25,293 bases of DNA from an uncultured virus (IMG/VR IMGVR_UViG_3300044701_002566) (IMGVR_UViG_3300044701_002566), one strand, 5' to 3'. Counted from the stretch's first letter, positions 6,020 through 20,522 are shown. The notes: generated by a model not told the origin, from the sequence alone. Made by a program: numbers and translations.

Positions 6020-6235
6020 TTACGGCTTGAGCGTCTTGATGGAGAACGGAGCGAGCCTGCCCTTACGGAGGCGTTCAGCGCGAACAAACTGCTGCGAGCC
6101 GGTTTTCGTGTTGCGAATCTTAATGAGGCCAGTGTCAGTCTTTTGAGGCACCACCACATAGGCTCCCCGCCATGCCTGAAACAGGATGTCGAATAGATCA
6201 ACGGCATCACCTGGCAAGAAAGATGGCTGGTTCAT
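6020..6235 (-). CDS. hypothetical SH3-like protein (71 aa)
   Basis: FLPGDAV...LIKIRNTKTGSQQFVRAERL pattern. Confidence 0.65.
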   Translation of the reverse strand: MNQPSFLPGDAVDLFDILFQAWRGAYVVVPQKTDTGLIKIRNTKTGSQQFVRAERLRKGRLAPFSIKTLKP

Positions 6236-6244
6236 GCGGGCAGT

Positions 6245-6266
6245 AAAAAGGGCGCCGATGGCGCCC
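6245..6266 (-). terminator. rho-independent terminator after rlpA
   Basis: GGGCGCC-ATC-GGCGCCC-TTTTT. Confidence 0.7.
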
Positions 6267-6301
6267 CTGTTGATTGATCCTCACCAGCGAAGCATAGAGC
6301 C

Positions 6302-6658
6302 TCAAGCCCTGCTGAAGCACACCCTGGCCACACCCTGTCCTGGGCTTGCAATGCGAGAGAATGCCCCGTAGCTCAAGTCGAGCACCCTGCCGCCAATGTA
6401 AGGGCCTCGATCGGCCACTACCACTTCAGTGGAGCGGCCGGTGTCTTGATTAACAACGCGCAGGCGTGTGCCGAACGGCAAGGAGCGATGGGCTGTGATG
6501 GCAGCATGAGGGTTCATGGCTTGGCCGTTTGCCATGGTCCGCCCCGCGAAGCCATCACCTTGTCCGTACCAGCTCGCAGAGCCGCAAGTGGCGGCCTGCG
6601 CTGGTAAGGAGGCAATGGAAAGGGAGGAAAGGGAAGCGAGAATGATTGTGCGAAGCAT
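6302..6658 (-). CDS. rlpA: RlpA-like DPBB lytic transglycosylase with signal peptide
   Basis: ASWYG, GRTMANG, TAHRSLPFGTRLRVVN, DRGPY, LDLSYGAF motifs; N-terminal signal ending AQA. Confidence 0.92.
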   Translation of the reverse strand: MLRTIILASLSSLSIASLPAQAATCGSASWYGQGDGFAGRTMANGQAMNPHAAITAHRSLPFGTRLRVVNQDTGRSTEVVVADRGPYIGGRVLDLSYGAFSRIASPGQGVARVCFSRA

Positions 6659-6740
6659 TTAGAGAGAGAAGTAGTTAGAGAGCCTGCCAGGTCGCCCTGG
6701 CAATGCCCACTGTATCAGAACGAGCCTGCCCTCTGCCTCG

Positions 6741-6947
6741 TGGTATGATTTGCAAGCAACTCGGCCCTGAGGCTTAACCGCCTCCAGCAATGCTGCCGTG
6801 AGGGTGGGCGGGCTTGATTGGTCTTGTGCTGCCGTAAGGAGCACAGCCGGATGACATGGCCGGTGAGGGCGACCAATCCCTGAGCAGCAGGAGAGAGCTT
6901 ATCGGAGGGTTGTAAAGAGGAAGGGGCCGCAAGGCCCCTTTTCTTTT
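6741..6947 (+). ncRNA. candidate structured ncRNA (~190 nt), 6S-like architecture
   Basis: Extended -10 TGGTATGAT at 6741-6749; nested stems (6756-62/6907-13, 6791-96/6884-89, 6816-23/6871-78); terminator at 6921-6947; no plausible ORF. Confidence 0.6.
6921..6947 (+). terminator. rho-independent terminator
   Basis: AAGGGGCC-GCAA-GGCCCCTT-TTCTTTT. Confidence 0.85.
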
Positions 6948-7055
6948 ATGATGCTGACGGTAGGTAGGCAGATGATCCTTCTCGTCTGTGAGCAATCAGC
7001 TCTCGGCTCACCAGGACTTCTCGTCATAAAGAAGGCCCCTTGCGGGGCCTTTTTC
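6947..7055 (+). ncRNA. candidate small RNA (~95 nt)
   Basis: -10 TATGAT at 6947-6952; hairpins GCAGATGA/TCGTCTGT and GTGAGC/GCTCAC; ends in the terminator at 7028-7055. Confidence 0.45.
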
Positions 7056-7062
7056 TTTATGA
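7024..7062. terminator. bidirectional rho-independent terminator
   Basis: TCATAAAGAAGGCCCC-TTGC-GGGGCCTTTTTCTTTATGA. Confidence 0.85.
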
Positions 7063-7506
7063 AAACTCTCCAACGATGTAGTCGTAGGTGCCTTCTCCAT
7101 TGCCTATACAATGCTGTCCGTCCACTTGATGGCGAAGCAGGAAGTTTGGCCCCCGTTTGCTCCTGTTGAGCTGGTGAAACTGTTCCTCACTGCAATAGCC
7201 CCAACCGTCGGGCCTGCTCCACCAGTCAGACTCCCAGTCAGTCTTTGTAGTAGAGCGCCGTTCAGTGACGGTTTTCACAAAGTCAGGCAAGGCTACGGAG
7301 TCTTCGTATTCATCAACAATGGACGATCCATCGTTGATGGCTTCAATGATGTGTTGAAGCACGTCCTTCCATGTGTAGATAAACTCCTCTGGATACACAT
7401 GAAGACTGAAGCACCAGCCATAGCTGGACTTGCCCAAGTGTAAGCCTTCTTCTTGATGCCCGCAGTGCGAACATGCAGGCTTGCGGAGGTAGAAGTTGGT
7501 TCCCAT
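7057..7506 (-). CDS. conserved phage protein with CxxC (149 aa)
   Basis: MGTNFY...CSHCG...LHLGKSSYGWCFSLH...GEFS, a recurrent phage protein pattern. Confidence 0.8.
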   Translation of the reverse strand: MGTNFYLRKPACSHCGHQEEGLHLGKSSYGWCFSLHVYPEEFIYTWKDVLQHIIEAINDGSSIVDEYEDSVALPDFVKTVTERRSTTKTDWESDWWSRPDGWGYCSEEQFHQLNRSKRGPNFLLRHQVDGQHCIGNGEGTYDYIVGEFS

Positions 7507-8776: not shown

Positions 8777-9583
8777 TCAAGCCTCTTCGTCTTCATCCTC
8801 TTCGTCTTCCCCATCGTCCTCGTCCCATTGTTGCGCAGGCAACATCGGCCTGCTGTTGCCAATGGGTTCACCATCCTCGTCCAGTTCAACAACGGCTTCA
8901 ATCGCCCCTGCCCGATCCTGAGCATTAGTCTCCGCTTGGCTGATCTTCTTCACTTCTTGACTCAACTGGCTCAAGAACTTCTTGTAGCTCTTCTCTTCGC
9001 CATCTTGAGACCTGGGCCTGGTATCAAACAAACCAAGCAGGCGAGCCTGCTGCTCCAAGCAGCCCTTGGCAACAGTAAGGAAGGAGCTTTCACCAGCCAA
9101 GGAGTGCTCTTCAATGGTGACAATTTCATCCCCATTGCGCTCTTGCACACGCTTCACAACTTTGCGCTTACTGGCCTCAAAGCTCTCCAGAGCCTTTGCC
9201 TTTAGAAGATCCTGTTCATCAAGAAGACGCGCTCTCCATTGGTCAGCAGTGGCAAGGATGCCATCAATGTACGTCTGCCGAATGTGCTGTCTATCTGCAT
9301 TGACAGTTTCCTTGCTGAGCTTGAATACCTTGGCAATCTGCGCATTGCTCAAGTTGGCAGCAAGAAGCTCGGCAGTGGCATAACGCCTAATGCGAGTGTT
9401 CTCTTTGTCGAACACTTGACCAAGTTCACGACGATTGCGAAGCCTATCCACTTGTTCAATGGATAGGCCCGCTTTCACTAATACTTCCAGGCTGTACTTC
9501 AGCAGGCTTTCTTCGTCCTTGAATTGCTTTTCAGGGACTGTACGTTTCTTCCTGTGATTAACGCCGCCTGGAATGTTTGTCAT
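8777..9583 (-). CDS. HTH protein with acidic tail, possibly terminase small subunit-like
   Basis: LSNAQIAKVFKLSKETVNADRQHIR HTH, helical region, ARLLGL motif, D/E-rich C-terminus. Confidence 0.55.
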   Translation of the reverse strand: MTNIPGGVNHRKKRTVPEKQFKDEESLLKYSLEVLVKAGLSIEQVDRLRNRRELGQVFDKENTRIRRYATAELLAANLSNAQIAKVFKLSKETVNADRQHIRQTYIDGILATADQWRARLLDEQDLLKAKALESFEASKRKVVKRVQERNGDEIVTIEEHSLAGESSFLTVAKGCLEQQARLLGLFDTRPRSQDGEEKSYKKFLSQLSQEVKKISQAETNAQDRAGAIEAVVELDEDGEPIGNSRPMLPAQQWDEDDGEDEEDEDEEA

Positions 9584-16182: not shown

Positions 16183-16947
16183 ATGACTTCCCTAGATCGG
16201 CATGAGCCGCAGCGTATCAGCATCAATGGCAAAAGGCACTACTGCTGCACAGGGTTCCCAAATGCCCCTGATGGGGCTGTGCTGCCTTCAGTCACCACAG
16301 TGCTTTCCTCCATGTCACCAGTGGGAAAGATCATGGCGCTAGTCAACTGGCGGAAGCGAGTGGGAGCCGAGGAAGCCAATCGTCGCACTCGCCTTGCCGC
16401 TAATCGCGGCACATGGCTTCATGCCATTCTTGAAGATTGGTTTGGCGATGAAGACATTGAAAATCATCTTGAAAAGGCGCCAGATTGGCAGCCTTATTTT
16501 CAAGCAGTGGAACCATTCTTGCAAGGCATTGAACAACCAGTGTTAGTGGAAAGTGCAGTGGCTTGGTACGATCAAGAACAGGCTATTGGCTATTCCGGCA
16601 CGTTAGACATGGTGGCAACAATGTCCAATGGCTCACTAGCCTTAGTCGATTGGAAAACCAGCTATAAGGAAAAGCCTGAAAAGCATCTTGCTGATTACAA
16701 GCGGCAACTTGGGGCCTATTCCATGGCCGCAGAGCAGATGTATGGCACCAGTATTGACGAAGCATGGTGCGTGATTGCTTGCTTTGACCCCGAGGATAAG
16801 GACAGCGAGCCAAGTCTTCAGTTGGTGCATCTTGATGGCTTTGAGCTGATAGCACAGCAGCGCATCATGCAGGACACTGTGCAACGATACTTTGCAGAGC
16901 ACTACCCCGGCAGCAAGGCTTTCACCATGACGGCAGACAAGGGGTAG
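16183..16947 (+). CDS. PD-(D/E)XK exonuclease (phage Cas4/MGME1-like)
   Basis: LPSVTTVLS, WRKRVG, RGTWLH, YSGTLD, VDWKTS, QLGAY motifs. Confidence 0.9.
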   Translation: MTSLDRHEPQRISINGKRHYCCTGFPNAPDGAVLPSVTTVLSSMSPVGKIMALVNWRKRVGAEEANRRTRLAANRGTWLHAILEDWFGDEDIENHLEKAPDWQPYFQAVEPFLQGIEQPVLVESAVAWYDQEQAIGYSGTLDMVATMSNGSLALVDWKTSYKEKPEKHLADYKRQLGAYSMAAEQMYGTSIDEAWCVIACFDPEDKDSEPSLQLVHLDGFELIAQQRIMQDTVQRYFAEHYPGSKAFTMTADKG

Positions 16948-17332: not shown

Positions 17333-17914
17333 ATGTTCCTCAACGACAAAGAAATCAACGCCCTCGCTGAGCTTGACATTCTCATGCCCTTCGTGGGCGA
17401 AAAGCGCCGTGAAGCCAATGGCAACAAGGCCGTGAGCTATGGGCTCAGTCAATGCGGCTACGACATTAGGCTTTCCTCTGAGCAATTCTTGGTGCTTGAA
17501 GGGCTGCAGTTTCTCCGGGAAGGAGAAGCTCTTTGTCCTAAAAACAACGCAGTGAAGAGCTACGAAGTAGTGTTAGAACACACTGAACTTGGCTTTTTCT
17601 TTGAACTACCTCCTCACAGTATTGGCAATGGAGTGAGCTTGGAGAGGTTTACGATGCCCAATGACATTGGTGCCATCGTGAAAGGCAAGAGCACCTATGC
17701 AAGGCTGGGCCTGATTACAAACATCACTCCCATTGAGCCTGGCTGGAGCGGCCACTTGACAATGAACTTCATCAACACAAGCCCATTCCCCATCCGTCTG
17801 TTCGCTGACGAAGGTATTGCTCAAGTGATGTTCTTCCATTGCGGAGAAGTGGACAAGCCGTACACTGGACACTATCAAGATCAAGGCGCTAAGGTACAGC
17901 AAGCCGTGGTCTAG
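17333..17914 (+). CDS. dcd: dCTP deaminase
   Basis: SYGLSQCGYDIRL, GKSTYARLG, TPIEPGWSG, EGIAQ, YQDQ motifs. Confidence 0.92.
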   Translation: MFLNDKEINALAELDILMPFVGEKRREANGNKAVSYGLSQCGYDIRLSSEQFLVLEGLQFLREGEALCPKNNAVKSYEVVLEHTELGFFFELPPHSIGNGVSLERFTMPNDIGAIVKGKSTYARLGLITNITPIEPGWSGHLTMNFINTSPFPIRLFADEGIAQVMFFHCGEVDKPYTGHYQDQGAKVQQAVV

Positions 17915-19944: not shown

Positions 19945-20427
19945 CTAACCAGCCTTGAGGATTAAAGACGGCCACTGAGCCGTCTTTTCTTTTAGCACGT
20001 CATGCACTGGCACCACTCGCTGACAATGCTCCATCCATTCCTCCCAAGATGAAATGTCAGTATGAGCACTGATAAAACTATGGCTATGCACCCATGAAAG
20101 CAGAATGTGCTCACGCTCTTCGCTCCAATGTTGCTTCGGCCTCCACCATTCCAATACTGCCAAGTTGGACTTGGAAGAGTTGCAGGAAAAGCACGCTGGC
20201 ACCATGTTCCACTTTGCATAATGTGGCCCACCTTTGCTCTTGGGGACAATGTGATCGAGCGTCAGCTTCTCATGCCACTTCCCGCAATAGGCGCAAGCAG
20301 GCTGCCCCAGTGGTCCCCTCAAAGGGTAATCTTCCAAGATGCCTTTACGAAATCTACGCTTTGCGTCGGAGGGGCGTAGTTCAATGAGAGAATGGAGAAG
20401 ATCATTAGGCCCATGCTCTCCGCCCAT
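19945..20427 (-). CDS. HNH endonuclease
   Basis: CAYCG...TLDHIVPKSKGG...NMVPACFSCNSSK. Confidence 0.9.
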   Translation of the reverse strand: MGGEHGPNDLLHSLIELRPSDAKRRFRKGILEDYPLRGPLGQPACAYCGKWHEKLTLDHIVPKSKGGPHYAKWNMVPACFSCNSSKSNLAVLEWWRPKQHWSEEREHILLSWVHSHSFISAHTDISSWEEWMEHCQRVVPVHDVLKEKTAQWPSLILKAG

Positions 20428-20522
20428 CGCTGTATTGGCTTTCCTAGACGATAGCAAGCCTTTTCAGCCTCTTCGTGGCCATTATGCTGCGGATTAGAAT
20501 GATGAAAACACTTCTTTGAACA

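Follow-up and report, generated by a model that had tools for sequence, protein, structure and literature searches.

A previously undescribed structured small RNA of freshwater phages, encoded back to back with an rlpA-like gene

Introduction

Phage-encoded regulatory RNAs are, to our knowledge, few in number and mostly short antisense transcripts. Among them, C4 of phages P1 and P7 and CI of phage P4 are antisense immunity RNAs that recognise short complementary sites in the leader of a phage mRNA. A comparable arrangement is found in the type I pairs tisB/istR-1, shoB/ohsC and zor/orz, in which a small RNA and an mRNA are transcribed divergently and share about 18-20 nt of complementarity. 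Small RNAs may also act on proteins: the known RsmZ/CsrB sponges carry several GGA motifs, which are displayed in hairpin loops.

The locus described here lies in a 25,293-nt stretch of DNA from an uncultured virus (IMG/VR IMGVR_UViG_3300044701_002566), which is called the window below. The window is a phage fragment encoding a primase-helicase, a Sak-like annealing protein, an exonuclease, a dCTP deaminase, a thymidylate synthase, an endolysin and tail fibres. A 400-nt gap between two - strand genes houses, at 6741-6947, a genuine gene for an elaborately folded small RNA of freshwater phages that was previously undescribed. A first-pass annotation, made from the sequence alone, had described this stretch as an RNA gene with 6S-like architecture; the promoter, the transcription unit and the terminator that it named were borne out, and the 6S reading was not.

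Like C4 and CI, the new RNA is a structured phage RNA with complementarity to a short leader site, and matched changes of RNA and target occur among related phages. Unlike them, it is more than twice as long, is predicted to form ten helices, and would present a single 6-nt patch in a three-way junction, not in hairpin loops; it is proposed to target a cell-wall enzyme gene transcribed in the opposite direction, and it has a promoter of its own, with no processing from an operon transcript. The Rfam C4 model gave no match in the window. With the type I pairs the locus shares the back-to-back genes and the complementarity of the small RNA to the 5' untranslated region of its neighbour, upstream of the ribosome binding site. 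It differs from them in that the complementarity spans 6 nt and the RNA is highly structured, and in that the neighbour encodes a secreted RlpA-family enzyme of 115-119 aa (in the window, a 118-aa DPBB/RlpA-family protein) as opposed to a small, hydrophobic and toxic membrane peptide. PADLOC returned no match. As in small RNAs that target a neighbouring gene, promoter and terminator are placed beside the proposed target, and the complementarity to its leader is kept by compensatory change.

Results and discussion

The RNA gene and its expression signals

The coordinates of the RNA gene, its structural elements and the flanking genes are collected in Table 1. The extended -10 element that the first-pass annotation had assigned to the gene (TGGTATGAT) is present on the + strand; a search for a -35 element upstream of it gave no match. 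Among the 33 family members collected as described below, 31 carry a TGnTAnnnT element 6-10 nt 5' of the covariance-model match. The strong terminator claimed earlier was recovered by a terminator scan as GGAAGGGGCC-GCAA-GGCCCCTTTT followed by a T run. A hairpin of -18 to -26 kcal/mol lies downstream of the RNA core in 33/33 members, and a regular expression located a T tract behind it in 31/33.

Table 1. Coordinates of the RNA gene, its predicted structural elements and neighbouring features in the window
Feature	Position	Strand	Remarks
RNA gene	6756-~6947	+	~190 nt; structured core 6756-6913, then terminator
Extended -10 promoter of RNA gene, TGGTATGAT	6741-6749	+	read in sequence
P1	6756-6762 with 6907-6913	+	closes whole RNA
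Domain 1	6764-6809	+	P2 around P2a, P2b and P2c (three hairpins)
P2	6764-6767 with 6806-6809	+
P2a	6769-6773/6780-6784	+	loop UUAACC
P2b	6785-6788/6792-6795	+
P2c	6796-6803	+	CC-GUGA-GG
Domain 2	6810-6900	+	P3 around three-way junction P4/P4a/P4b, plus P5
P3	6810-6815 with 6895-6900	+
P4	6816-6823/6871-6878	+
P4a	6826-6844	+	GUAA loop
P4b	6846-6864	+	loop containing CAUGG
J4 hexamer GAGGGC	6865-6870	+	single-stranded in three-way junction; proposed leader-recognition patch
P5	6879-6891	+	variable hairpin
Linker AUCGGA between P3 and P1	6901-6906	+	unpaired in model; identical in 33/33
Intrinsic terminator	6919-6947	+	stem 6919-6942, GCAA loop, T run
rlpA-like gene	6302-6658	-	118-aa secreted RlpA-family (DPBB) lytic transglycosylase domain protein; proposed target
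Leader hexamer GCUCUC	6678-6683	-	J4 complement; ends 19 nt before start codon
rlpA-like leader 5' hairpin	6686-6701	-	GCCAGG-GCGA-CCUGGC
Extended -10-like element TGATACAGT	6709-6717	-	presumed rlpA-like promoter; conserved box upstream of RNA gene
Converging gene	7057-7506	-	149-aa protein, no known family

The claim that the stretch holds no credible ORF agrees with the absence of any + strand ORF of at least 30 aa overlapping 6750-6947. Since, in addition, the members of the family are separated by 1- and 2-nt indels in the alignment, the region is taken to be non-coding. ORFs on the - strand across the RNA vary in place and length from member to member, and ARAGORN found neither tRNA nor tmRNA in the window. 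As had been noted, the RNA gene is oriented opposite to its neighbours, both flanking genes being on the - strand.

Public-run data were available as contigs from four sequencing runs, which cannot prove the ends of an RNA. One contig of 189 nt equals 6756-6917 at 100% identity and starts 7 nt past the -10 element; its library is labelled metatranscriptomic and its run is flagged 'RNA? (probably DNA)', and it is taken as a weak hint that the gene is expressed. A few variants were seen among the public-run contigs, and one diverged relative matches only at both ends of the stretch compared.

Collection of homologues

Homologues were collected by pattern and covariance-model searches, and at least 33 distinct sequences from viral contigs were retained (alignment A10). 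With a pattern derived from the conserved box that precedes the RNA promoter, two diverged copies were found, and patterns from the blocks shared by these copies led to further homologues in viral contigs. Short exact patterns of 14-15 nt were discarded as a means of finding homologues, their matches being mostly due to chance. A covariance model (R2), for which only the other subfamily was used (15 sequences, A7), matches the window at 6757-6914 over its full length (65.1 bits, E 2.5e-16). It also matches 28 of the 40 viral loci among the listed matches of a first gapped pattern and at least 43 loci among the 119 listed matches of a second. Both gapped pattern scans demand the invariant block described below, and the second yielded at least 119 loci, for which reasons the family is expected to be larger, and perhaps more varied, than sampled here.

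When applied to the 41 genome_contigs loci listed by the pattern scan, R2 gave no match (best E 0.43); a host or prophage copy was therefore not found in this set. A model built from the window alone with a minimum-energy-like structure (R1) was run on 100 loci around relatives of the 149-aa protein and recovered near-identical copies, with nothing else below E 0.7. Searches of the surroundings of these relatives with blastn and nhmmer likewise returned nothing beyond near-identical copies, and comparison of 6640-7080 with phage GenBank records gave no DNA match.

One close relative, a metagenome contig (L084) whose 149-aa protein is 92% identical, differs from the window at 2/357 nt over 6700-7056. 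In the flanking 50-nt bins the difference is 0-20% on the right and 20-77% on the left (6100-6699). The border of similarity is sharp at 6699/6700: the RNA side is 99.4% identical, and beyond it the rlpA-like leader and gene are of another type. This pattern indicates either strong constraint on 6700-7056 or a recent exchange of that block. The window's exact RNA stands in L084 next to a leader of the other type, to which J4 can still form five pairs. On this comparison, exchange within one specificity class seems to involve the RNA gene and the target gene as independent blocks.

Fold and covariation

The RNA is predicted to consist of ten helices arranged in two branched domains, which are closed by pairing of the 5' and 3' ends, and this fold is supported by covariation. 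In the alignment of 33 sequences, 96.8% of 1804 cells in 57 pairs are paired, a percentage that is inflated because both main alignments were fitted to the model structure; compensatory changes occur in 51/57 pairs, 0/500 shuffles were as good, and slid controls gave 40-51% paired. Covariation among homologues, which the first-pass annotation had named as a check on the RNA, accordingly came out in favour of a structured molecule. The equally fitted alignment of 22 sequences has 98.2% of cells paired over 57 pairs, of which 43 changed on both sides (0/500 shuffles as good; slid controls 43-52% paired). Fitting of the alignment to the structure does not explain the many pair types per position. 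A MAFFT alignment of the 22 sequences, fitted to no structure, shows double changes in 27/51 predicted pairs, and RNAalifold yielded the same architecture when applied to each subfamily separately. Across the family, 200 pair cells are G-U and 3 are A-C, which identifies the + strand as the RNA. The folding energy of the single sequence is not better than chance (z = -1.49 for the + strand and -2.54 for the - strand); the case for structure is for this reason based on the 33 homologues and not on folding energy.

Part of the fold drawn by hand in the first-pass annotation can be recognised in this model. Its closing stem GCAACTC/GGGTTGT corresponds to P1, in which both sides changed at 6/6 modelled pairs and pairing extends to 99.5% of cells; the variants GCAACUC/GGGUUGU, GCAAUUC/GGAUUGC, GUGGUU/AGCCAU and GCAGUC/GGCUGC all pair. 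The stem GATTGGTC/GACCAATC (P4) and the two head hairpins (P4a and P4b) have the backing of covariation as well, and within the helices of domain 2 (P3-P5) 31/33 pairs show changes on both sides. The stem CTGA-GGCTT/GAGCT-TCGG has to be given up: GGCTT is part of the local hairpin at 6769-6784, and GAGCT pairs with 6810-6815. The hand-drawn fold as a whole evaluates to -58.7 kcal/mol, versus -83.6 kcal/mol for the minimum-energy fold.

The CCGUGAGGGUGG block, which comprises the 12 columns 6796-6807, is identical in 33/33 sequences, as is the linker between P3 and P1. An alternative to P2, in which UCC (6765-6767 region) would pair with GGA in AUCGGA, was considered and dropped, since compensatory changes favour P2. 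For a candidate pseudoknot between the P4b loop (CAUGG) and CCGUG, both partners hardly vary, and some members lack the loop motif. The repeat reported earlier is real, with TGCTGCCGTGAGG beginning at 6791 and TGCTGCCGTAAGG at 6827. As a side observation, the 13-nt repeat (6791-6803/6827-6839) represents two similar hairpin modules of the type ...GCUG followed by CC-GNRA-GG, one in P2b/P2c and the other in P4a; the first copy contains the invariant GUGAGG of domain 1.

The divergent rlpA-like gene and its leader

The 118-aa product of the neighbouring gene has a signal peptide and matches Pfam DPBB_1 (E 1.5e-22). It scores 78.5 bits against NCBIfam rlpA, below the cut-off of 82.15; the scores of three members, including this one, are 78.5, 82.0 and 123.1 bits. 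By tblastn, an rlpA-like gene of 115-119 aa lies divergently adjacent to the RNA in 31/33 members, with about 100-125 nt between the RNA 5' end and the rlpA-like start codon. The two members without it are the lowest-scoring ones (45 and 42 bits) and derive from fragmentary records (29% and 22% complete). The divergent arrangement of the RNA gene and the rlpA-like gene is conserved.

The box upstream of the RNA gene reads TGATACAGT on the - strand in the window and TGGCACAAT in the other subfamily, and a regular expression located a TGnYAYnnT-type element at this place in 27/33 members. We infer that the box is the promoter of the rlpA-like gene. The two -10 elements are about 25 bp apart, and the two promoters would therefore overlap back to back. 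A sigma54 reading of the box (TGGCAC...TTGC) was rejected on account of wrong spacing. A box of this kind (about 23 nt, AATGCCCAC.GTA.CAGAACGAG) was also observed at 1497-1522 of an otherwise dissimilar IMG/VR contig (L165), in which no RNA gene could be recognised next to it in the alignment.

The rlpA-like leader opens with a short hairpin. In 31 leaders a hairpin with a GNRA loop and differing stems occupies this place, followed by an unstructured, pyrimidine-rich stretch. A Shine-Dalgarno-like 4-mer was found in 0/31 leaders. Directly behind the 5' hairpin lies a hexamer that is the complement of J4, and its end is 19-21 nt from the start codon in 31/31 leaders, although the intervening sequence varies.

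Matched variation of J4 and the leader hexamer

J4 and the hexamer of the rlpA-like leader vary in a matched fashion. At this site, six pairs can be formed in 27 of the 31 members and five in the remaining 4. The classes of J4/leader sequences include GCGAGG/CCUCGC, GAGAGG/CCUCUC (in two separate lineages), GCAGGG/CCCUGC, AUGGGG/CCCCAU, GUGAGG/CCUCAC, GUAAGG/CCUUGC and GAGGGC/GCUCUC, the last being that of the window. Over 11 classes, 64/66 cells pair (59 of them Watson-Crick), compared with means of 52.8 (43.4 Watson-Crick) when the partners were shuffled (p about 1e-5). Of the cells that are not Watson-Crick, 5/7 are G-U, as pairing between two RNAs would give.

Because the leader site had first been spotted by eye, a blind scan compared the RNA alignment with the leaders, aligned by MAFFT, over all 16,520 pairs of six-column windows. 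J4 and its leader site ranked first (93% paired) and were the sole window with at least 90% pairing and co-variation; the invariant GUGAGG of domain 1 ties with J4, being able to pair as often with this leader site, but shows no co-variation. A test with free register yielded p = 0.022 when full pairing was scored and p = 0.0008 when Watson-Crick pairs were summed; it is less powerful because the pyrimidine-rich leaders pair promiscuously when G-U is allowed, and 62/120 non-cognate combinations also reach six pairs (G-U allowed, anywhere in the 45-nt leader). A further candidate contact, in which the P2a loop UUAAYY would serve as a seed for leader UAAUUG, was rejected: several members have plain tetraloops instead, and the leader of the window lacks the partner.

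Proposed role

With moderate confidence, and from comparative sequence evidence, we favour a role for the RNA as a structured regulator that would act in trans on the mRNA of its rlpA-like neighbour, through pairing of J4 with the leader. The RNA would be made from its own extended -10 element to its own terminator. The six unpaired junction bases of J4 would then pair in trans with the leader hexamer and thereby dock the RNA through a 6-bp helix; stacking would be possible, since helices on both partners bound this helix. The docked RNA would border, on the 5' side, the site where ribosomes land that load without a Shine-Dalgarno sequence, and docking may reduce the translation or the stability of the rlpA-like mRNA. 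Repression is our guess as the likelier outcome, activation being given roughly half its weight. Overlap of the divergent promoters could contribute a transcriptional either/or.

The contact between J4 and the leader is short (5-6 bp), and the pairing may be only part of the function, because ten helices and 33 near-invariant positions exceed the needs of a 6-nt seed. An RNA of this complexity, with an invariant core, suggests a role beyond that of a seed carrier. The fixed spacing of 19-21 nt and the invariance of the core (CCGUGAGGGUGG and AUCGGA) led us to consider a guide-bearing machine that docks by J4 and then either cleaves the leader or presents its core to the 30S subunit. In the one case, the RNA would be a natural ribozyme acting in trans, with guide and substrate co-evolving; in the other, a purine-rich core would be offered to 30S and replace the missing Shine-Dalgarno sequence in trans. 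Constant spacing, leaders devoid of a Shine-Dalgarno sequence (31/31) and an over-engineered fold would be expected of such a machine, which we nevertheless hold to be improbable.

The family is best read as new and without an Rfam counterpart, and as an unusual variant of phage antisense control. In the excerpts returned by a full-text literature search, nothing resembled a structured phage RNA paired with an rlpA-like gene. This large RNA family is found widely among freshwater phage contigs; covariation supports it strongly, and its core is complex and tertiary-looking. The natural compensatory variants of J4 and the leader hexamer define specificity classes. If regulation by J4/leader pairing is correct, it would represent a new way to display a seed, namely in a three-way junction with flanking helices on both partners, would show how a phage times a potentially dangerous enzyme that cuts the cell wall, and would provide RNA structural biology with a compact natural RNA-RNA docking module.

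Alternative readings

The relationship between the two hexamers could also be one of DNA: leader site and J4 would be two sites, direct repeats about 190 bp apart, of a phage DNA-binding protein, and the RNA would be a scaffold, sensor or catalyst. On the + strand the two copies are near-identical in most classes, and this view would sit well with an RNA that is far more complex than a seed-bearing small RNA needs to be and whose invariant blocks are unexplained by helices. We nevertheless judge it unlikely. The copies differ in 5/11 classes, and 5/7 differing cells correspond exactly to G-U pairs at the RNA level; J4 coincides precisely with the six unpaired bases of the junction, and the leader copy precisely with the interval between the 5' hairpin and the unstructured leader. 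Moreover, no conserved candidate gene for a regulator lies beside the pair, the downstream neighbours being variable. Much less credible still is the view that the RNA is a leader acting in cis, as riboswitch or attenuator, on a + strand gene further downstream, the terminator serving as expression platform. A complex conserved fold followed by a terminator has this appearance, and a small + strand ORF does lie behind the terminator in some members of the other subfamily. In the window, however, no credible + strand gene follows the RNA, and the sole listed ORF (6948-7169, 73 aa) crosses the second terminator into the converging gene ending at 7057. Downstream ORFs are unlike in place and length among members, and the strong terminator hairpin is present in 33/33 without any competing anti-terminator having been found.

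Two readings assign the RNA to known protein-binding classes, and both appear very improbable. The first-pass annotation had taken it for a phage-encoded 6S mimic, that is, an imitation of an open promoter acting on host sigma70 RNA polymerase. Length (~190 nt), a free-standing gene with its own promoter and terminator, and paired 5' and 3' ends are indeed shared with 6S RNA (RF00013 and related families). A covariance-model search found no Rfam family at its gathering score anywhere in the window; at E up to 10, no family covers 6750-6918 convincingly and 6S is not matched in 6600-7100, and the 6S models gave no match in eight other members at E up to 1. In place of the rod with a central bubble that characterises 6S RNA, the present fold has two branched domains with 10 helices, 5 branch points and no bubble resembling an open promoter. 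The long strand of the asymmetric central bubble that had been proposed (6776-6790) lies in P2a and P2b, both of which have compensatory changes, and the TGCTGC/GCAGCA stem finds no support in the covariation-backed fold. Unlike 6S RNA, this RNA is also linked to one neighbouring gene through co-varying complementarity. A tempting but wrong annotation as phage 6S RNA is thereby removed, and the other designation offered at the time, a new class of non-coding RNA, is the one that holds for a structured RNA with its own promoter and terminator, very strong covariation and no entry in Rfam. A sponge for a CsrA/RsmA-type protein, in the manner of RsmZ or CsrB (RF00166), is brought to mind by a purine-rich, unpaired GGA within AUCGGA, by the terminal terminator and by a PrrB_RsmZ match in 1/8 loci (L372). 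That match is below threshold (27.3 bits versus a gathering score of 44), most of it being owed to the terminator and to dispersed GGA motifs; at E up to 10, PrrB_RsmZ is not matched in the window. Instead of repeated GGA loops, the family as a whole conserves a single unpaired GGA, and its fold is unrelated. Regulation of the rlpA-like mRNA through J4 remains the preferred reading.

Other features of the surrounding region

Right after the terminator, a second TATGAT (6947-6952, + strand) is followed by about 80 nt with conserved hairpins (6946-7064), and a second terminator-like hairpin at 7030-7058 doubles as the terminator of the converging gene. Double changes occur at 4/34 predicted pairs in 4 sequences; 6946-7064 could be a second small RNA or merely a conserved 3' region. 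Both -10-like hexamers read TATGCT in one relative (L166), versus TATGAT in the window. In four loci (L350, L376, L349 and L357), a TATGCT, an AGGAG and a + strand ORF of 65-70 aa were observed at about +200 to +430 from the RNA start. This ORF behind the RNA terminator belongs to part of the other subfamily and is missing from other members.

Elsewhere in the window, the predicted ORFs at 8777-9583, 16183-16947 and 17333-17914 have pyrimidine-rich sequences upstream of their starts, without a Shine-Dalgarno sequence; other ORF starts have clear GGAG-type sites. An HNH endonuclease ORF (19945-20457, - strand) lies between the nucleotide-metabolism genes and the endolysin gene and represents an ordinary homing-type insertion.
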